Shown in pieces: positions 717-31,531 of a stretch of 38,485 nt of DNA. The number at the start of each line of letters is the position of its first letter. The first letter of the stretch is position 1. The notes below the pieces were generated by a model, which did not search any database, was not told the DNA's origin, and worked only from the letters and a program-made list of their open reading frames with translations. Source of the DNA: a phage; the NCBI GenBank assembly GCA_016969615.1, contig GCA_016969615.1_4548.1. One strand, 5' to 3'. The position numbers were made by a program, and so were the translations under genes.

Positions 717-3700
717 TCCTTGATGTGGATACCTTGCTCCTCAAACGTTCCAAGCAACAGCTTCTGGGTAATTGGGTCGTTCGGAACCAGTTCACGGAAC
801 GTATTATACATCCCGGTCATGTAGTCACGCTCGTTGACACGAGTATCGGCCTTGAGGTAGCCAGCCAAGTTGTAAGCCGAAGCGCCAACGTTAGCAGCAT
901 ATCCGAAAGCTGGAACCTGCTCCAAGAAGTTACCAACAATATTCATCACAGGGTCACTTGTAGCTGCACCATACGCGATGGCACGTTCAGTCTTCTCTGT
1001 AGACGAACGAGGTAGGATAGACGAACGGAGCATCTTAGTGTCCTCGTACCCAGCGATACCACCAAGAATGTTAGCTACCCCAAGTGGTCCACCGAGATGT
1101 GAACTACGGGACAGAGCCGCATAACCAATCATCGTCGGGTCCAGAGCTTGCTTGAGGTAGTCACGGTCACGACCATCCTGCATAGCGTAAGCCTTGATGT
1201 GTGCCTGAGCCATGTAGTAGATACCAGCAAGACCCATAGACATCACAGTGGACAGTGCAGCGTCAATCGCTCTGTTGTTCTTCGTGGCGTTATAGAAGGT
1301 TCGCATGGTTCTCCCATTGATGGACTTGATGACGAAGTTCTTAAACTGAAGGACAGTCTTAGCCAGAGGGCCATAAGCCTTGGCGTCCATGTTACTCAGC
1401 TTGTGTGGACGAAGCAATGTCTCGTCAGCGATGGTGTCGCCCATACGCCACAGGTCCATAGCCCTTGGGTCCTGACTAAACGCCTTCTTATCCTTGATCG
1501 TGTACTTCCCGTCTGGACCACGCGTCACTGACTCACGGATGAGGGACTTAATGCCCTTCCACTGCTCGTCAGAGATACCAGCGGTCTTCAGCCATCGGTC
1601 ATCGAACTTACGCTTACTACCAGTCAGGCTATGCTCCACGATGTCAGATAGGAAGCCTTGACGTCCAGCATCTAACAGGTAGTTGGTCGTACCGTTTAGG
1701 ACTTTAGTGAACGGAGAGCGTACGGCAAGTTCACCAGTGTAATACTTGGCAGTCCCCAGAGCTGTAGCTGCACCACGACCGAGGTCACTGTAAGACCGCA
1801 GACGGTCGATGACATCCTGTTTAGACGGACGGATTGAGTCATCCAATTCTTTACCGAAGAGAACACTATGCAGGTCCTTAATCTCTGAGGCCCCTACCTT
1901 CTTGTTACGGAAGGCTAGGTCACGGAACATCGGGACTCCATGCAGCAGCGCACGAACGTTGCCACGAGCCAGCATGCCTCCAATCTCCGTTAAGTTCTGA
2001 ACACCCATGTAGGCATTCTTAGCGAAGAACGATAGGTCTGTCATTGTGCGCATCACGGTAGCGAAGGCTGCATCATCAGCACCATCACGTCGAGCACGAC
2101 CAGTTAGAATCTTCAAGGTGTCACGTAAGGTAGATACCTCACCTTTCAATTTACCGTCATCCCCAGCCTTGTTCATCATGGTCTCAACCAAGTCCTTCAT
2201 GTCCTTCGTGGTTTTGCCTGTACCAGCCATGATAGCAATATCGCCATTAACTCGACGGTTGTAGGCCGGGACAATCTTGTCCATGTCCCACTCACGCAGG
2301 TTGTTGACACTGAAGGTCTGACCGTTAGGAAGGACGATTGACATATCGCTATCGAACAGGTTACGAGCCTCAAGGAAGCTGTTGTTCTCCAGACCAACCA
2401 GACCGTTGATGTTCTCTTCCATTACGGATGAACGTTCGAACTGCTCGGTGTGAGAGATACCGTAAGCCTTATCGTTGGCGTACTTATCGACCGCAGCAGA
2501 AAGTCCCTCTGGAGTCAACGTAGGGTCAGCCTCTAAGAGTGCCTCGTCCACGCGTTTCTTGACTTCAGGTCGAGACGCATAGCTGGTCAACCATGACTTC
2601 TTGATGGCCTCCTGCAACGCCTCTGGACTCCCAAGCTCCTTGATGTACAGCTCCTTCATCTGTTTGCTATACACATGAGGGACGTAGGTCCCCTTGAATC
2701 GGCTACCCGGAAAGATAGACTGAGCGTCTGGACGACCAAACATAGCTGGGTTCTCCATCATCTCACGCTTGGCGTCAAACTGGTTCTTCAGTAGGTCATA
2801 GACTTTCAGCTCTCCCGGAGTCAGTTCAGCCTTCAGGTTCCCACTACCATCTTCGATAGCCATGGACACACGCTGGTAGATGTCCTGACGGAATGCACCA
2901 GAGTCTCGCCAGAATGCTGTCTGGAAGTACGGGTCCTTTAGTGCCTCAGTAACCGCATCGTCGATGTCGTTGTAGAACCGATGGTCCACAGCACGAAGTC
3001 TCTCGAACACGTCTGACGCAGTTGTCCCGATTTTACCTGAGGCCCCAGACTGCATACCAGTTGGTGAACGCACTAAGTCAGCAGCTACTCCACGAATCTC
3101 AGGGTTCTCAGACCGAAGCAGCTTCAGACCAATCTCGGTAAGTCCGCCAAGGTTCACGCCAGCAGCTGCACGTTCCGGCTCAATCACTTCGTCAAAGACT
3201 TGACGTGTCTTAGGGTTCAGAGGGTTCTCACCAATCAGGATTGAACCATCTTCCAGTCGTACACTACCCGGCTCGTTCGGAACGTCAGCGAACTTAACAC
3301 CTTGATGACTAAAGGTCTGCTCACCTTCCTGAATAGGTAGACGAGACAGGTCCTGACCGTCAACATTACGTGCAGTCTCACGGGCTTCCAGACGTGTGGC
3401 TGGACCAGCAAACTCATTAGTGTTGCGGCCCAAGGCTCTTCCTAGTCCATCAGCGATAGCAGTCATACCACCACCGAATAGAGCGCCACCAAGGATAGCT
3501 TCAGCCACATGAGCATCACCACCAGCCACTGAGGTACGGGCCATCTCAGACACACCAGCCAGTGCTCCGGATTGAGCCGCCACGGTGAACATCTTGTTTA
3601 CCAGTTTACCTCCTTTACCCACCTGTCCAGCAATCGGAACGTATGTCAGAGGGTCAACGCCAGCGCCAATAACACCAGCAGCCAACTGAGCACCAGTCCC

Positions 3701-24973: not shown

Positions 24974-25226
24974 TGATCACCTCCTTCATGAACTCAACGA
25001 ACAGACGAACTCGGGGCCACTTGGTGTAGACCACGGGTACATTGGTCTCACACTTCTGGCGAGCCTCTTCAGCTTTGCCCGGAGTAATCAGAGCGTAGAC
25101 TGTAGGTGACAGCTTAACGGCCTTCCCGAAGTATCCGAGCTTCTCGTTACGATTAATGCAAGCGAACGGGTTGTTGGACAGGTGGAAGGTATTGGAATAA
25201 CGGTTGAACATTAAGTTCTTAGACAT
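24966..25226 (-). CDS. Hypothetical 86-aa protein (gene 1.5/1.6 position)
   Basis: first ORF after a phage promoter; RBS TAAGGAGA; no domain recognised. Confidence 0.55.
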   Translation of the reverse strand: MSKNLMFNRYSNTFHLSNNPFACINRNEKLGYFGKAVKLSPTVYALITPGKAEEARQKCETNVPVVYTKWPRVRLFVEFMKEVIND

Positions 25227-25254
25227 AGAGTCTCCTTAGGTTGTTGATGGTTGT

Positions 25255-25272
25255 CCTATAGTGATAGCTTAG
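25255..25272 (-). promoter_or_regulatory. Phage RNA polymerase promoter core after the ligase gene
   Basis: minus CTAAGCTATCACTATAGG (one mismatch). Confidence 0.75.
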
Positions 25273-25291
25273 GTCCAGCTGGTGGCCCAGA

Positions 25292-25325
25292 CGCAAAGAA
25301 ACCCAGCAGTCCTAAGACCACTGGG
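25292..25325 (-). terminator. TE-like intrinsic terminator after the ligase gene
   Basis: minus RNA CCCAGUGGUC-UUAG-GGACUGCUGGG (10-bp stem, two G-U) followed by UUUCUUUGCG; 12 nt after the ligase stop, as T7 TE follows gene 1.3. Confidence 0.65.
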
Positions 25326-25336
25326 TTGACATTTAG

Positions 25337-26458
25337 TTAGCTCTTAATGGTCGGGTTATCTTCCGTCCCGCGCCAGCACTTGAAGCTAGGGTGACGTAAG
25401 GAACCATCTGGTGTCATCTCCATGTAGGAGACTTCGCATTGATGTCCTTTGTAGGGGTTCACATCCTCAAGACATTCCTCACCACATTCTTCCCGCTCAA
25501 TATCAGTCATGCAGTCATTCCAAATATAGGCACGTTCAGCTTCAACCGCTTCGGTGAACTCATCCATCAGAGCCTGAGAGATATTGTTAGCAGCAACTAC
25601 CATACCGTTCTCAAGCAGTACGTCGAACCCAATCACCTTACCTTCGTTGGCGAGACCTTTCGTCCCCCAATTCAGTCCTACCACGGTACCATCAATGGTG
25701 TTCTCCGGCTTCATCTTCCACATACCAGACTTCTTGCCACGCTTATATTTACCCAGCGGGTCCTTGACTACCAGACCCTCGTGTCCTTCCAGACGCTTCT
25801 CTTCATATAGGGAGTTGAGCGACTCAAGGTCATAGACCGTGTGTGACTCAGACAGAACCCAGTCGATTTCCGGGAGGTATTTCTGGAGGAGAGGGACGAT
25901 AGCTTCGGCCTTCAGGCGGGTTACGCTATGGATAGGACCTTCGGCTTTCTGGTCGAGGATGACGTTAAGGTCGATGATACCATAGACGACCACGCGGATG
26001 TGGTCTGTTGCCAGATGGAAAGGGACCTTATGCTTCTTCTTGGTGTCGATGTCAGCATCTGGGTTGCCATTCCAAGCGTAGTTCTTAGTGTCTGACCACA
26101 TGGTACGGACTAGACCTGAGGAAGTGTTGAAGTCGGTTGCAGGAACCATGACCTCACCGTCAATCATCAGGCCCGTACCTTCGTAGCCAGCCTGTTTAAG
26201 GAACCATCGCCAGTATCCACAGTTTGTTAATTCGGTAGGACTCCCACGTTCTGACTTCAGATGCTGAAGCGCTGGAAGCTCTTTGGACTCACGGCTTAAC
26301 CATTGAGTCTCACCAGTAGGGAAGACCGGAAGGTTCAACCGGACACCGTCATACTTCACTTCAGCTTCCAGAGACCCGGCTGCTTCCAGTGCCTTCTTAA
26401 TGCCAGACTCAGAGTAATCTACAGCGCGGTGCGGGTGGGTCTTGATGGTAGTAGTCAT
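25337..26458 (-). CDS. gp1.3: ATP-dependent DNA ligase
   Basis: 373 aa; KYDGVR adenylation motif, EGHEGLVVKDP, KRGKKSGMWKMKPE, ETPDGSLRHPSF; aligns with T7 ligase. Confidence 0.95.
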   Translation of the reverse strand: MTTTIKTHPHRAVDYSESGIKKALEAAGSLEAEVKYDGVRLNLPVFPTGETQWLSRESKELPALQHLKSERGSPTELTNCGYWRWFLKQAGYEGTGLMIDGEVMVPATDFNTSSGLVRTMWSDTKNYAWNGNPDADIDTKKKHKVPFHLATDHIRVVVYGIIDLNVILDQKAEGPIHSVTRLKAEAIVPLLQKYLPEIDWVLSESHTVYDLESLNSLYEEKRLEGHEGLVVKDPLGKYKRGKKSGMWKMKPENTIDGTVVGLNWGTKGLANEGKVIGFDVLLENGMVVAANNISQALMDEFTEAVEAERAYIWNDCMTDIEREECGEECLEDVNPYKGHQCEVSYMEMTPDGSLRHPSFKCWRGTEDNPTIKS

Positions 26459-26475
26459 TGATAATATCTCCAGAA

Positions 26476-26763
26476 TTAAAGGAAGCGACCAGTATAGTCG
26501 TTGAACTGTTTGTTAAACCAAGTGGCGACCGCTACGGTCTGCATATCTTCGTCGCGGATACTCGGGTACTCAGTGAAGTCCTTCTCAATGAGGACCTCCC
26601 GTGTGTGGACGTGGATTATAACCGCTCGTACGCAGTATCTGTTCGCCGCCTGGTCGAACCAAGTTCTTACCACTGCGTTGTAATCGGTCTCGGACTGCCA
26701 GTTGTTGATGGACTGACGCAGAGTGTTCAGGTTGCCACTATGTGCTCTTGAGAACATGCCCAT
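26476..26763 (-). CDS. gp1.2: gp1.2-like protein (host dGTPase inhibitor family)
   Basis: 95 aa; MG...SGNL N-terminus and W.D/CVR/DED blocks resemble T7 gp1.2; position after gene 1.1. Confidence 0.65.
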   Translation of the reverse strand: MGMFSRAHSGNLNTLRQSINNWQSETDYNAVVRTWFDQAANRYCVRAVIIHVHTREVLIEKDFTEYPSIRDEDMQTVAVATWFNKQFNDYTGRFL

Positions 26764-26766
26764 ACT

Positions 26767-26946
26767 TTACGCTCCTACGAAATACTTCTCTTGGTTAACC
26801 ATAGATTCTTTACCTTCAGCGTTACGGAAAGCGCCCTTGATACCACCGCCACGCTTGGTCTTGTTCAGCTTGCGGCCCTTCGGGATGTAGCCTTCAGTCT
26901 GCCGACGTTCACGGATGCGCTCGAAGTTGATAGTATTCTGATACAT
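26767..26946 (-). CDS. gp1.1: gp1.1-like small basic protein
   Basis: 59 aa; contains KGRKLNKTKR, as in T7 gp1.1; first ORF after a phage promoter; below ORF-track cutoff. Confidence 0.6.
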   Translation of the reverse strand: MYQNTINFERIRERRQTEGYIPKGRKLNKTKRGGGIKGAFRNAEGKESMVNQEKYFVGA

Positions 26947-27023
26947 ACGGTTAAATCTCCAGTAGTGTTTATTTAGGGTTAATCATGAAGGCAACGACTT
27001 TAAGTCATTACCTTGAGTCTAAT

Positions 27024-27041
27024 CCTATAGTGATAGTTTAG
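27024..27041 (-). promoter_or_regulatory. Phage RNA polymerase promoter core upstream of gene 1.1
   Basis: minus CTAAACTATCACTATAGGATTAGACTCAAGG; followed by the recurring TAGACTCAAGG motif. Confidence 0.85.
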
Positions 27042-27058
27042 GGTATGAATCGTGGTCT

Positions 27059-27505
27059 TTAAGGGAAGACTTGTACCATGCGTTCTTGCTTGGCCTCCTC
27101 ACCATAGACCCGCACCAGCTCGTAGTCGTACTGTATGAGTCCAACAATGTCGCTAAGTCGATACTCAAAGTCTTTCTGAGACCCGTCTACGTGGTGCTGG
27201 TGGATGGTAATGGTGCGCTCAGTCTTCGATACGGTGAAGTTCTTAACGTTCTTACCACAGTTACCCGGTCCAGTCTTGAACTCAGTCGGTTGATACGTGC
27301 CATTGAACAGCGCCATGAACTTGATGCCGACCATACGCTTGACAGTTACAGACGATAGTTGCGTTAGGCGCTTACGCTCTGATTTAGCAAGTTTAACCTT
27401 CAGTCTCTCGTTGTCCTTATCCCGGACCGTTACGGCTCGCTCCAAGTATGCCACCTTCATGCTCAACTCTTTGATTTGTGCTTTAAGTTTTGACTTACCG
27501 AACAT
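27059..27505 (-). CDS. Hypothetical 148-aa protein with basic coiled-coil-like N-terminus
   Basis: RBS AGAGGT (7 nt) then ATG; lies between gene 1 and the gene 1.1 promoter where T7 has no gene. Confidence 0.7.
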   Translation of the reverse strand: MFGKSKLKAQIKELSMKVAYLERAVTVRDKDNERLKVKLAKSERKRLTQLSSVTVKRMVGIKFMALFNGTYQPTEFKTGPGNCGKNVKNFTVSKTERTITIHQHHVDGSQKDFEYRLSDIVGLIQYDYELVRVYGEEAKQERMVQVFP

Positions 27506-27583
27506 AGGGTTAACCTCTTCTGTGTTGGATTAAAGTGAATACTGCGAGTGCTCCCATCCACAGGGACAGCAACTGTAGGTCTG

Positions 27584-27784
27584 TCATTTGGTAGCCTCCT
27601 CTTTAAGAGCTTGCTCGTGTGTCTGCTTAACCAGCTTAACCAGCCACTTGAATGTTACGTTAAGCCGCTTTGACAGCTCTGTAGGGATGATCGTGGTCTT
27701 CACCAGACCCTTACCATTGTGCTCTGTTACGGTCACTATTTGAGTCCCACCATTAACGCCTGTCTGCTTGTGTGCAAATTTCAT
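27584..27784 (-). CDS. Hypothetical 66-aa protein just after the RNA polymerase gene
   Basis: RBS CAGGAGAGAG 12 nt after gene 1 stop; stop overlaps (ATGA) a further 25-codon hydrophobic ORF (27510..27587). Confidence 0.55.
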   Translation of the reverse strand: MKFAHKQTGVNGGTQIVTVTEHNGKGLVKTTIIPTELSKRLNVTFKWLVKLVKQTHEQALKEEATK

Positions 27785-27796
27785 AACTCTCTCCTG

Positions 27797-30478
27797 TTAA
27801 GCGAATGCAAAGTCTGAAGACAAGATGTCTTCGATATTCAGTTTACCTTTCTTCGGAAGCTCTGGCAGCTTGTCGCGCTGGCTCTCATGAAGCTGGTATT
27901 CAAACTGCTCATAGAAGTCAAGCAGCACATCGTTGTCGCGGTAGGTCTCGACCATCGTCTCACGGACACCACGGAACAGATACTCAGCGTCAGCCGGGAT
28001 GGTCCCGAAGCTATCGTGAATCACTGCGAATGACATCACGCCATACTTGCGGTGAGTGTGGACTACAGTCTTGCGGAGGTGGCAGCCATCTTGTGAGTGG
28101 ACGAAGTTCGGGCTAATTCCTGACTCCTGCTTGTGCTTGTCCAGATCTTTCTTCATGCCTTTGTTGACGGTAGGCTGAAGGTTAAATGATCCTAAGAACA
28201 TCAGGTTCAGACGCGTGGTATCCTTCTTGCGGTATTCCTGCCAGACCGGGAACCCATCAGGTGTGACCCAGTGTACCGGAAGGCAAGGCTTCAGGATTTC
28301 ACCAGTCTTCTTGTCTTTCACTTCAGCAGCAAGCAGCTTGGCAGCACCTTGAAGCCACTTCATCGCGTCAACCGCAGCGACTACAGTCACAGACACAGCT
28401 TCCCAAATCATCTTAGCCATGAAGCGGGACGCTTGGCTTGGTTCGGTGAACATAGCGCCAGACCCTGAGTCAATTGCTGGCATCACGATGTCCTCGTAAA
28501 CTTGGTCTGCAAAGCCGTACTCTTTCGACCCGTAGGCCAGAGTCATGACTGAGCGCTTAGTAACCTTGCGTGACATACCGTAAGTCAGCCACTGCCGGGC
28601 CAGCTCTCGTGTCCCCAGCTTGAGACGTTCGGTAATCTCACCAGTCTTCTTATCCTCATGAGTGACCATCTCGTTGTCCGTACCATTAACCAGCAGGACT
28701 TTAAGCTCTTCCTCAATGCGGTCAGATACGATGCGGTAGATGTCTTGGACCTTACCGGAAGGCGTCAGGTTTACTGCATGTCCACCGATGTGATCACGAA
28801 GCATCGCGCTAAAGTGCTGAATCCCAGAGCAGGACCCATCGAATGCTATCGGCAGCGAGCAGGAGTAAGACAATCCGTGATGCATTACGCCAGCATACTC
28901 GAAGCAGAACGCTAGGAAGCAGAACGGAGAGTCTAACTTTCCCCACCACTCAATGCTGTCCATCGGTGCCTTAGCGGCAGCCATGATGTTGTCGTGGTTG
29001 TCTTCCACCCACTTGATGCGCTCCTCGAAGGTTACTTTATCGACACCCGCGCAGTTTGCCCCGTGGACCTTCAGCCATTTGAAACCGTCGGCCCCAATAG
29101 GCTTACCGACCGCCAGAGTCAGAAGACCCTTTTGCATGTCGTTACCTTGAGGGTTGAACATCGGAACAGCGTATACACGACCTCGCCAGTCCATATTGTA
29201 CGGAAACCATATGGCCTTGAACTGAGAGAATTTGTTCGCTTGGTTGACTATAAAGCTCAGTGACAATCTTCGCGACCGCCGGGCCTTCTCTCGGCGGTAG
29301 ATGCCAGCAGCAGCCTTCTTCCATGCCTTGAGTTCCTCTTCAGTATCCCCCGCATAGTCTTCAGGCTTCAGCGGCTCCATCTGAGGGATGTCGTCAATAG
29401 GCGTGTTATTCAGCTTCTCGACCTTGTTCACCACGTCCAGCACCTTCTTGTTCACTTTCCAAGGCGTATTCTGGATGATATTCACAGCGTCATAGACTTC
29501 AGGCATGTACACATCTTCGTAGCGTGCCACCGCAGACTTAGACCCTAAGCGAATCAGTGGTAGTGGTCTGCGACCTTTGGCCCAGTACCCACCGCCTACG
29601 ACACCAGTCCACGGCTTAGGTGGAACGACGCAAGGCTGGTAGACTGGAGCGATACCCGCAAGGCTGAATCCTCGTTGTGCCATCTTCTTGACCCAGAAGT
29701 CTGACAGGTGGACCATCTCAACGTCAGCCGCTACATTACCAGCACCGTAACGCTTAAGCTCAACCAGTTGTGTAGACTGGATGACAATCTCAAGCATCTT
29801 GATGCCAACGTGTACCGCTTCGGTCGGACTCCAAGTACCCCACGCATCTTCCAGCTGACCCTGCTCCAGCATGGAGGTCTCAACCGCTTGCATGTAGGCT
29901 TTCTTATAGGATGCCCCGGCTCGCTTGTTCAGGTTCTCAGCTATCGCCTTCTTGAAGTGCGCCTGCTCCTTGTCTCGGATTCGACCGAAGCGGATTTCAT
30001 CTTCAAGTGTGCGACCTATCGCGGAGGCCATCGGTGTAATCGGTATACCTTCAGGCTTGACCAGCTTGGAGAGGATGACCTTCAGTATGATAACCGCAGC
30101 AGACTCACAGGAGATGTGCAAAGAGCGGTCCTTGACGGCCTTCTCTTCAGTGCTCAACATGGTGAACGCTACGCTCGGACGTGAGGTTGACAGCTTCCCG
30201 TCTTGACCTTCATGCCACTCCCTGACGGCTTGCGCAATCTTAGGAACCAGAGTCTGCATCAAAGGCTTGGCTACCTGATTGTCTGCCAGTTCCCCGCGCT
30301 CAGTCTGTCGCTCAAGGTTCTTGATGAAACGTCGCTCGCCTTCAGTGTATGCCTCATGCTCAAGCTGAAGCTGTTTGACTGCAAGGTCTTGCCCGTAGTG
30401 GTCAGCCAGCAGGTTAAACGGCTCAATGGCGTTCGACACATCGGAGAAGTCGTGTTTGTCAATAGGGATGACTCTCAT
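27797..30478 (-). CDS. gp1: DNA-directed RNA polymerase (single-subunit, T7 type)
   Basis: 893 aa; near-continuous alignment with T7 RNAP (PFCFLAFCFEYAGV.HHGLSY.CSLP.AFDGSCSGIQHFSAMLRD, HDSFGT, FAFA C-terminus); specificity-loop region differs from T7. Confidence 0.97.
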   Translation of the reverse strand: MRVIPIDKHDFSDVSNAIEPFNLLADHYGQDLAVKQLQLEHEAYTEGERRFIKNLERQTERGELADNQVAKPLMQTLVPKIAQAVREWHEGQDGKLSTSRPSVAFTMLSTEEKAVKDRSLHISCESAAVIILKVILSKLVKPEGIPITPMASAIGRTLEDEIRFGRIRDKEQAHFKKAIAENLNKRAGASYKKAYMQAVETSMLEQGQLEDAWGTWSPTEAVHVGIKMLEIVIQSTQLVELKRYGAGNVAADVEMVHLSDFWVKKMAQRGFSLAGIAPVYQPCVVPPKPWTGVVGGGYWAKGRRPLPLIRLGSKSAVARYEDVYMPEVYDAVNIIQNTPWKVNKKVLDVVNKVEKLNNTPIDDIPQMEPLKPEDYAGDTEEELKAWKKAAAGIYRREKARRSRRLSLSFIVNQANKFSQFKAIWFPYNMDWRGRVYAVPMFNPQGNDMQKGLLTLAVGKPIGADGFKWLKVHGANCAGVDKVTFEERIKWVEDNHDNIMAAAKAPMDSIEWWGKLDSPFCFLAFCFEYAGVMHHGLSYSCSLPIAFDGSCSGIQHFSAMLRDHIGGHAVNLTPSGKVQDIYRIVSDRIEEELKVLLVNGTDNEMVTHEDKKTGEITERLKLGTRELARQWLTYGMSRKVTKRSVMTLAYGSKEYGFADQVYEDIVMPAIDSGSGAMFTEPSQASRFMAKMIWEAVSVTVVAAVDAMKWLQGAAKLLAAEVKDKKTGEILKPCLPVHWVTPDGFPVWQEYRKKDTTRLNLMFLGSFNLQPTVNKGMKKDLDKHKQESGISPNFVHSQDGCHLRKTVVHTHRKYGVMSFAVIHDSFGTIPADAEYLFRGVRETMVETYRDNDVLLDFYEQFEYQLHESQRDKLPELPKKGKLNIEDILSSDFAFA

Positions 30479-30497
30479 ACTTAAAGTCCTTGTTATT

Positions 30498-30538
30498 AGT
30501 CTTTCACTTAAAGTCTCTTTGGTCTTTCACTTGGAGTC
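30498..30538 (-). repeat. Two 18-bp direct repeats in the gene 1 leader
   Basis: plus agtctttcacttaaagtc (30498..30515) and ggtctttcacttggagtc (30521..30538), 15/18 identical, between promoter and gene 1 RBS. Confidence 0.6.
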
Positions 30539-30551
30539 TTAGACCTTGAGT

Positions 30552-30569
30552 CCTATAGTGATAGTTAAG
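30552..30569 (-). promoter_or_regulatory. Phage RNA polymerase promoter core immediately upstream of gene 1
   Basis: minus CTTAACTATCACTATAGGACTCAAGG; about 70 nt upstream of the RNAP start codon. Confidence 0.8.
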
Positions 30570-30575
30570 TCAGAA

Positions 30576-30836
30576 TCACTTGCATATCAGTGGGTTAGCG
30601 TGAAGATGACTGAAGTCACCATGAGTCGTATGCTTGATGGTTGACCGTTGGTCTATCGCCTTCCAGCCTGAGACCAGAAGTTTACCATCGTCAGTGATTG
30701 GTCGTCCACCATACGCCAGACACATCAGTTCGGACTTATAGCCCTCAGCCCGGAGTCTTGCTTGCAGTACACGGTCGCGCTCCTGCTGTTGACGTGCGGA
30801 GTGTGAAGAGTGGCGGTGAGTGTATGTAGATTTCAT
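30576..30836 (-). CDS. Hypothetical 86-aa early protein
   Basis: ATG overlaps (ATGA) the stop of the restored HNH reading frame; no domain recognised. Confidence 0.55.
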   Translation of the reverse strand: MKSTYTHRHSSHSARQQQERDRVLQARLRAEGYKSELMCLAYGGRPITDDGKLLVSGWKAIDQRSTIKHTTHGDFSHLHANPLICK

Positions 30837-31248
30837 TGTTGGTGCTCCTGTAAGTATTTGATTGCTCTCGCCAGCAGTTCCTGCGAGTCGTTAAATTTTC
30901 CCAGAGTGGTGTTACATGAAAAGCAGAGAAGACCTCGCACCTTCCCCCCGTGGAGTGGCAGTGGTCTACTGCGAGTCGTTGCCCTCTAGTCTCTTCCCCT
31001 GCACATATCGCACACACTCCACCCTGCCTCTCAAGCATCGCATCGTATTCTTCCACAGTAATCCCGTACAGTCTTTTAAGGAAGGATTTGCGCTGCACAT
31101 TCTTGAAGCTCTCTTCATTGCTGCGCTTTTTTCGTGCCAAATACTTGCAGGCTTTGCATTGATTTTCGTAACCATCCTTATGCCCCAGATGTTTATAAAA
31201 ATCAGTCAACGGCTTTAATGTGTGACACTTCTTGCATATCTTTTCCAT
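30833..31248 (-). pseudogene. Endonuclease VII-type HNH endonuclease, reading frame broken at a C6/G6 homopolymer
   Basis: 0-frame gives ...GGVCAICAGEETRGQRLAVDHCHSTGG then off-motif residues; the -1 frame after the six-C run at 30944..30949 reads KVRGLLCFSCNTTLGKF... (canonical Endo VII motif) and ends TGA overlapping the next ATG. Confidence 0.75.
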
Positions 31249-31445
31249 CACAGCTTACTTCCCAAAGTTGCTATATCCCAGACGTTCGCGAGGTTGCGCA
31301 TGAATCGTCCGTTAGGTTGACGTACAGTCCAGCGGCCCGGACGTACATAGTTGAATTTGTAGACTTTACGCGCCTTGTTAATGTCTCTCATCAGCACGTA
31401 GGCGATAAGTCCATAGCCTATGACTATCAATAGTGTTATACTCAT
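31248..31445 (-). CDS. Small membrane protein (65 aa)
   Basis: N-terminal hydrophobic helix MSITLLIVIGYGLIAYVLM; stop overlaps the HNH start; ATG overlaps the stop of an upstream 29-aa ORF. Confidence 0.5.
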   Translation of the reverse strand: MSITLLIVIGYGLIAYVLMRDINKARKVYKFNYVRPGRWTVRQPNGRFMRNLANVWDIATLGSKL

Positions 31446-31531
31446 AGTGATTTCCGTTTAATGCAATCGTATATCCCATAGCCTATCAGCCAGATAACTG
31501 GCGCTAGGCATACCCAGTATCCCACACTCAT
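31442..31531 (-). CDS. Candidate 29-aa membrane micro-protein
   Basis: AGGAG then 6 nt then ATG; MSVGYWVCLAPVIWLIGYGIYDCIKRKSL; below ORF-track cutoff. Confidence 0.35.
   Translation of the reverse strand: MSVGYWVCLAPVIWLIGYGIYDCIKRKSL

Follow-up and report, generated by a model that had tools for sequence, protein, structure and literature searches.

The gene for the phage RNA polymerase (gene 1) in contig GCA_016969615.1_4548.1, a stretch of 38,485 nucleotides (nt) referred to here as the window, is followed by a block of three small open reading frames (ORFs). The window belongs to a K1F/EcoDS1-type T7-like phage (Kayfunavirus), and the block is encoded on its minus strand. The pattern of substitutions among relatives argues that the middle ORF, of only 25 codons and here called the micro-ORF, is a real, conserved, protein-coding gene that is almost never annotated. 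Our reading of the block as a whole, which we consider somewhat probable, is that it is an ordinary accessory block, made on the gene 1 transcript and directed at the host, in which the largest product belongs to a family, gp1.05, that acts at the inner membrane. Gene 1 and the three ORFs, whose tight coupling had been described in a first-pass annotation made from the sequence alone and is fully borne out, are as follows (lengths in amino acids, aa).

27797..30478, minus strand: gene 1, T7-type single-subunit RNA polymerase, 893 aa; the ORF matches the annotated RNA polymerase and is the upstream gene of the operon.
27584..27784, minus strand: 66-aa ORF; its ATG lies 12 nt past the gene 1 stop and is served by an AGGAG Shine-Dalgarno sequence.
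27510..27587, minus strand: 25-codon ORF; ATGA overlap with the stop of the 66-aa ORF, GAGGAGG 7 nt upstream.
27059..27505, minus strand: 148-aa ORF; its start lies 4 nt past the micro-ORF stop, GAGGT 7 nt upstream.

The same annotation had remarked that T7 goes directly from gene 1 to the phi1.1 promoters, and indeed the T7 interval after gene 1 holds only phi1.1A/B. A DNA search with a 951-base query spanning the block returned 208 phage records, mostly Kayfunavirus of the K1F/EcoDS1 group and mostly from phages of Escherichia, Salmonella, Enterobacter and Citrobacter, with 83–89% identity to the best matches listed. In the Kayfunavirus phages EcoDS1, TM1, ST31, GA2A and SH4, among others, the gene order, the overlaps, and the promoter positions and sequences are as in the window. 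The differences are minor: EcoDS1 has an extra 76-aa ORF that the window lacks, and the window's 148-aa protein is 7–11 residues shorter than its counterparts in Kayfunavirus relatives. The three-gene block is thus the standard gene 1-to-phi1.1 arrangement of K1F-like phages, already deposited and not unusual. It adds one more Kayfunavirus example of this accessory block between gene 1 and gene 1.1, whose largest gene comes from a family that already has a name in EcoDS1. What is new here is that the micro-ORF is demonstrably coding, conserved and nearly unannotated; that gp1.05 is a removable module bounded by short repeats; and that the membrane helix, a separate gene in some phages and part of gp1.05 in others, hints at the membrane as the site, the first testable idea of where the gp1.05 family acts.

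A conserved 25-codon gene and its constant neighbor

The micro-ORF product reads MTDLQLLSLWMGALAVFTLIQHRRG in the window, and its consensus across relatives is MTDLQLLALWLGALAVFTLIQRRRG. The micro-ORF, 25 codons long (26 in locus L042), is seen in every Kayfunavirus-type locus inspected (more than 30), K1F and Providencia phage EPr2 among them, and in the Caroctavirus CR8. It is also found in the divergent contigs L040, L042, L043 and L045, whose neighboring proteins are only 40–57% identical to those of the window, and tblastn places the peptide in 103 phage records.

Substitutions were analyzed in 24–25 distinct DNA versions, all of which keep the ORF. The ratio of non-synonymous to synonymous change (pN/pS) is 0.26 in frame, versus 0.91 and 1.08 in the other two frames. 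The minimal substitution steps number 35 synonymous and 20 non-synonymous, where 31% synonymous would be expected (p = 8e-7); the other two frames show no synonymous excess and contain stops. Residues M1, T2, W10, Q21 and R23-R24-G25 are invariant in 17 of 17 aligned variants, and, when read from its GTG start, the L045 homologue carries S at the second position. That homologue (3501..3626) had been annotated as a 41-aa protein that starts at an ATG further upstream, within the gene before it; the GTG at 3549 would yield the usual 25 codons, VSNLTWLALWLAFLALTIIIQRRRG.

The near-invariant 3′ end of the micro-ORF doubles as the ribosome-binding site of gp1.05. In divergent copies, the Arg codons alternate between AGA, CGT, CGC and CGA and the peptide end stays QRRRG. 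Shuffled versions of the region fold more stably than the region itself (z = +1.8), and it has no match in Rfam. Because the purifying pattern is specific to its own frame, the Arg changes are synonymous, no RNA fold is evident, and the ORF is kept in genomes without gp1.05, we take the micro-ORF to be coding. Its coupling to the upstream ORF, by ATGA, GTGA or TAATG, is kept in nearly all loci. In CR8, the peptide is 84% identical and is preceded by a different 45-aa ORF (TAATG overlap), and a phage promoter follows directly, without gp1.05. The 45-aa ORF was considered as a relative of the 66-aa family and rejected, as hhalign finds no relation.

The micro-ORF is as conserved as its neighboring genes or more so, but absent from nearly every annotation and from protein databases. 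It was found annotated in only two phage records, IMM-002 (among 11 annotated records inspected) and GA2A (by exact-sequence look-up); in K1F, it is present and unannotated. Since the micro-ORF is too short to serve as a query in protein databases, a tandem-duplicate query was used instead. The only matches were one copy with an N-terminal extension and one with a frameshift; no protein in which the micro-ORF is fused to gp1.05 was among them. The consensus sequence had no match in a collection of 15 billion proteins, nor did a literature search with the peptide sequence give any result. The micro-ORF would be easy to tag or delete in K1F, which serves in research on phage therapy.

The hydrophobic core of the peptide spans residues 4–20 (17 residues, mean Kyte-Doolittle value 1.97) and is flanked by an N-terminal MTD and a basic tail, Q(H/R)RRG, features that amount to a single-pass span with charge asymmetry. 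By the positive-inside rule, the product is predicted to be a single-pass inner-membrane peptide, N-out/C-in. Residues 8, 12 and 15 (Ala/Ser, Gly/Ala and Ala) make up a mostly small-residue face, although some variants have S, L or V at position 12. A length of 20–35 aa, one hydrophobic helix and a charged end are typical of the small membrane proteins of bacteria and of type I toxin peptides. The phage peptide would resemble them in length, in its single hydrophobic helix and in its basic cytoplasmic tail, a functional analogy only, drawn from hydropathy. It differs from them in that it has no sequence relationship to them, is phage-encoded and is coupled to an upstream ORF.

The 66-aa protein is basic (isoelectric point, pI, 10.0), and its gene always lies just upstream of the micro-ORF in Kayfunavirus. 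It matches phrog_8082 over its whole length (E = 5.4e-39, residues 1–66 on profile positions 1–66 of 66), and its 154 close relatives are all on phage contigs of roughly 40 kb. An exhaustive profile search of 1.8 billion cluster representatives found about seven true small-protein clusters (50% identity) for the family; the long repetitive matches in that search are spurious. There was no sequence match to the 66-aa protein in Pfam, NCBIfam, PADLOC or the PDB. Modeling suggests that this narrow, genus-level family has a basic β3-α2 fold. The fold matches of the model (predicted local distance difference test score, pLDDT, 73) to LptE, T7 gp1.2, AcrIF24, Xp10 P7 and AP2 reflect a generic two-layer α/β arrangement and were rejected as a basis for function. 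The label “gp1.1” that EcoDS1 gives to its 71-aa homologue of this gene looks mis-named.

The 148-aa gp1.05 homologue

The first-pass annotation had suggested a comparison with gene 1.05-type genes, and this proved to be the right lead. The 148-aa protein matches the Pfam family PF25755 (Phage_T3_1_05) with 84.3 bits, where the cut-off is 27 (E = 5.8e-24; residues 58–128 on profile positions 2–73 of 73), and phrog_8103 over its full length (E = 5e-53). It has 224 database relatives, with PF25755 in 120 of the 120 relatives listed, and tblastn finds the family in 469 phage records across Studiervirinae genera; the exact 148-aa sequence is on record only from the window's own contig, deposited under an E. 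coli assembly. Position agrees with sequence. In every record inspected, from Kayfuna-, Przondo-, Teetre-, Berlin-, Eluna- and Helsettvirus, gp1.05 follows gene 1. The window's copy has gene 1 on one side and the homologue of gene 1.1 (PF08200) on the other, and its position is equivalent in EcoDS1, KP32, L1, SH2, T3, 285P and PcCB251. The orthologue at this position is named gp1.05 in EcoDS1; other records call it “hypothetical” or, spuriously, “microtubule-binding protein”. By these sequence criteria, the 148-aa protein is a gp1.05 homologue, from a family widespread in T7-like phages and uncharacterised. Literature searches on the function of gp1.05 or gene 1.05, on small membrane proteins of Kayfunavirus and on screens of accessory genes retrieved no functional study, only genome-annotation tables. 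The orthology to characterised proteins that had been named as grounds for setting the first-pass proposal aside is therefore not what emerged: the orthologues are conserved and uncharacterised.

AlphaFold2 predicts for the 148-aa protein (pLDDT 87) a helix from residue 2 to 47, a seven-stranded β domain from 53 to 133, and a short C-terminal helix. The basic, coiled-coil-like N-terminus perceived at first pass is well founded: the N-terminus is basic (pI 10.4), and the predicted helix carries the heptad core L-I-L-V-L-V..L-L. A search of BFVD with the gp1.05 domain retrieved only uncharacterised Autographiviridae proteins, in which the domain (73–100 aa) stands alone or behind N-terminal extensions. 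The β domain and the position between gene 1 and gene 1.1 are shared with the gp1.05 of T3-like and other Studiervirinae, which is named as such in EcoDS1, phiSG-JL2, 285P and L1 and called a “fusion protein” in KP32. The β-domain motifs common to the Studiervirinae proteins are EFK-G-G-CGK and G-R-I. The window's copy has EFKTGPGNCGK and reads G-L-I where 33 of 33 aligned relatives, and other genera, read G-R-I. T3 gp1.05 differs in being a 90-aa β domain only, with its own promoter, phi1.05, whereas the window's gp1.05 has a coiled coil and no phage promoter of its own.

Two further observations concern sequence variation in this protein. The window's copy has V121 and L123 where 33 of 33 aligned relatives have D and R, and a premature stop removes the basic tail of 7–11 residues. 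Across relatives, residues 1–52 (alignment columns 1–55) fall into at least four very different coiled-coil classes, carried on an almost constant β domain, which suggests module swapping or diversifying selection on the stalk.

gp1.05 is not always present. Of 14 IMG/VR loci, which were retrieved by a DNA pattern from the 3′ end of the micro-ORF, all 14 have the 66-aa gene and the micro-ORF, and 8 have gp1.05; it is also absent from K1F, EPr2 and CR8. The features that bound it in the window are as follows.

27505..27510, minus strand: ACCCTA direct repeat, left copy; bounds the gp1.05 module.
27039..27044, minus strand: ACCCTA direct repeat, right copy; at the 5′ edge of the phi1.1 promoter.
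27023..27043, minus strand: phage promoter, phi1.1 equivalent, CCCTAAACTATCACTATAGGA; an exact consensus copy that closes the block, directly after the 148-aa ORF.

The module between the ACCCTA repeats measures 466 bp in the window. Genomes without gp1.05 (K1F, EPr2 and 6 of the 14 IMG/VR loci) read GGTTAACCCTAAACTATCACTATAGG, the exact repeat-to-repeat junction (L027, 1066..1090; L033). Because this junction is precisely the product expected of ACCCTA × ACCCTA, we take gp1.05 to be an optional module that comes and goes through recombination between short homologous stretches, where it borders the promoter. It would be non-essential in T7-like phages, as T7, K1F and CR8 are without it. Some relatives also have an extra 76–86-aa ORF between gene 1 and the 66-aa gene (EcoDS1, L001 1620..1850; L042 1727..1987). 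Given this extra ORF and the optional gp1.05, the gene 1-to-phi1.1 interval is a small hotspot for accessory genes, whose constant core is the 66-aa gene plus the peptide.

A putative site of action at the inner membrane

The gp1.05 proteins of other genera bear on where the family acts. Those of Przondovirus (KP32, phi1_146039), Teetrevirus SH2 and Berlinvirus (285P, PcCB251) are 164–190 aa long and have a membrane helix that begins at residues 1–5 (17-residue hydropathy of 1.9–3.0), then basic or aromatic residues, a long coiled coil, and the β domain. A membrane-anchored coiled-coil stalk with a cytoplasmic β domain is the commonest predicted architecture in the six other genera sampled. 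A membrane helix is absent from the window's gp1.05: its maximum 17-residue hydropathy is 1.06 and is not N-terminal, so that it is not of the KP32 “fusion protein” type (closest PHROG, 6440). Elunavirus L1 and Kayfunavirus gp1.05 consist of a coiled coil and the β domain, and T3 gp1.05 of the β domain only. In Yersinia phage fPS-52 (Helsettvirus), the helix and coiled coil are in one ORF (L039, 544..792) and the end of the β domain in a separate 41-aa ORF (958..1083); this gp1.05 appears broken.

Because a membrane helix is fused to gp1.05 in other genera and a separate membrane-peptide gene lies directly upstream of it in Kayfunavirus, there is moderate evidence for the inner membrane as the gp1.05 family's site of action. 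A joint action of the peptide and gp1.05 is less well supported. We picture the events as follows. The 66-aa basic α/β protein and the 25-aa membrane peptide are a constant pair, the peptide being translated by coupling to the 66-aa gene. The peptide would then insert in the inner membrane, its N-terminus facing outward and its RRRG tail on the cytoplasmic side. The gp1.05 family would most likely lie at the cytoplasmic face of that membrane, as a coiled-coil dimer that presents two β domains to its target, either a host component or a nucleic acid. The Kayfunavirus phages would have the membrane helix as a gene of its own, functioning also without gp1.05, and the block as a whole would be non-essential and host-directed.

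Several points weigh against the reading of the block as a membrane-sited, host-directed unit. The link between the peptide helix and the fused gp1.05 helices is architectural only; hydrophobic segments carry too little information to establish homology between them. The peptide is retained in genomes that have no gp1.05 and need not act with it. Elunavirus L1 and T3 gp1.05 have no membrane helix, so a membrane location is not universal in the family. With V121, L123 and the lost basic tail, the window's own gp1.05 may be functionally impaired. Finally, searches of the block proteins against the PDB, Pfam, NCBIfam, PADLOC and BFVD found nothing characterised.

How the three products would be related to one another admits several explanations. 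It is tempting to propose that the peptide is the true conserved core of the block, recruiting the 66-aa protein, and gp1.05 when present, to the membrane, or acting alone on a host membrane target; the split arrangement of Kayfunavirus versus the fused one of KP32-, T3- and Berlin-like phages would then be a gene-fusion clue that the gp1.05 family works at the membrane. We put this forward as a tentative proposal. A closely related idea is that the peptide is the detached membrane anchor of gp1.05, separated by fission, or joined to it by fusion in the other genera, and that the two form an obligate complex tethering gp1.05 to the inner membrane. The micro-ORF stop lies 4–6 nt upstream of the start of a gp1.05 without a membrane helix, a single chain carries membrane helix, coiled coil and β domain in other genera, and the helix-plus-coiled-coil ORF of fPS-52 is separate from its β-domain fragment, all of which would fit such an anchor. 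Its obligate nature, however, is hard to reconcile with a peptide kept under purifying selection where gp1.05 is missing (K1F, EPr2, CR8 and 6 of the 14 IMG/VR loci). Moreover, the helices have no detectable sequence homology, the protein database holds no fused form, and the frame relation between the micro-ORF and gp1.05 varies among relatives, leaving no conserved recoding fusion. Programmed frameshifting or readthrough joining the two was likewise rejected, as the offset of the gp1.05 start differs among relatives. An obligate anchor is therefore doubtful in our view.

We are equally doubtful that the block is an anti-defence cassette in which at least one of the three proteins inhibits a host immune system. 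The first-pass annotation had regarded host takeover or anti-defence as plausible, and this remains a guess, as no sequence, family or fold match leads to a known function. Such a role would suit the location in an early/middle operon, the variable gene content (the optional 76–86-aa ORF, the optional gp1.05 and the different 45-aa ORF in CR8), and the hypervariable coiled coil of gp1.05 on its constant β domain. Within the genus, on the other hand, the 66-aa gene and the micro-ORF do not vary in this way but stay constant; the block proteins show no homology to known anti-defence proteins and no sequence match to a characterised inhibitor, and the literature searches found nothing.

The peptide might instead be a membrane-active effector on its own, whether depolarising or toxin-like, active in exclusion, or modulating a host protein of the inner membrane, with the flanking proteins as unrelated passengers. 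The analogy with bacterial small membrane proteins and type I toxins in size, single hydrophobic helix and charged tail would be in keeping with this, as would a conservation that matches or exceeds that of the neighbors and the independence from gp1.05; the small-residue face at residues 8, 12 and 15 would suit helix-helix packing. The conserved coupling to the upstream ORF, by contrast, hints at co-production with a partner, and we think an effector acting alone unlikely. Least credible by far is that the micro-ORF is not a gene, being instead a leader or coupling device for gp1.05, or an element acting as DNA or RNA, for instance an origin of replication or a processing site: its 3′ end does contain the gp1.05 Shine-Dalgarno sequence, nearly invariant in close relatives, and the T3 primary origin lies in the corresponding interval, but the codon-periodic substitution pattern peculiar to its frame, the retention of the peptide where gp1.05 is missing, the synonymous changes in the RRRG codons, the weaker-than-shuffled folding and the empty Rfam search all speak against it.

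Transcription signals and adjacent genes

In addition to the phi1.1 equivalent, two signals in the vicinity of the block concern its transcript.

30551..30571, minus strand: phage RNA polymerase promoter, GACTTAACTATCACTATAGGA; directly before gene 1, one of 9 copies.
26988..27014, minus strand: 12-bp hairpin just after the phi1.1 promoter; −19.8 kcal/mol, z = −3.1.

This strand carries 9 copies of the phage promoter consensus (..CTAAACTATCACTATAGGA), where chance would give 0. EcoDS1 and CR8 annotate a promoter at the place that matches the window's phi1.1 equivalent, and EcoDS1 annotates a “promoter phi” before gene 1, matching 30551..30571. A scan of 25000..31500 found no sigma-70-like promoters, and none of the terminator-like sites found there lies inside the block. 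Lacking promoters and terminators of its own, the block would be made on the gene 1 transcript. The first-pass annotation had the three ORFs co-transcribed with gene 1 as early genes. Co-transcription stands, gene 1 and the block being separated by neither a promoter nor a terminator; “early” is incomplete, because gene 1 is itself directly preceded by a phage promoter. This promoter implies positive feedback on gene 1 and transcription of the block by the phage polymerase. The gene 1 transcript carrying the block would thus be made first by the host RNA polymerase and then by the phage polymerase, and the block is probably transcribed by both and not purely early. The transcript would probably end by processing at the hairpin. 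T3 has an annotated RNase III site, R1.1, at the equivalent place (the T3/T7 R1.1 position), and the hairpin is likely the 3′ processing point of the gene 1-block transcript, presumably through RNase III cleavage.

Upstream of gene 1, an HNH/Endonuclease VII-type gene is split by a frameshift at a six-G run (30745..31251 and 30833..30940, minus strand). The ORF as called covers only positions 4–50 of PF02945; with the two ORFs joined, the match extends over positions 4–81 (101.6 bits). The split gene is either a pseudogene or the product of a homopolymer sequencing error.

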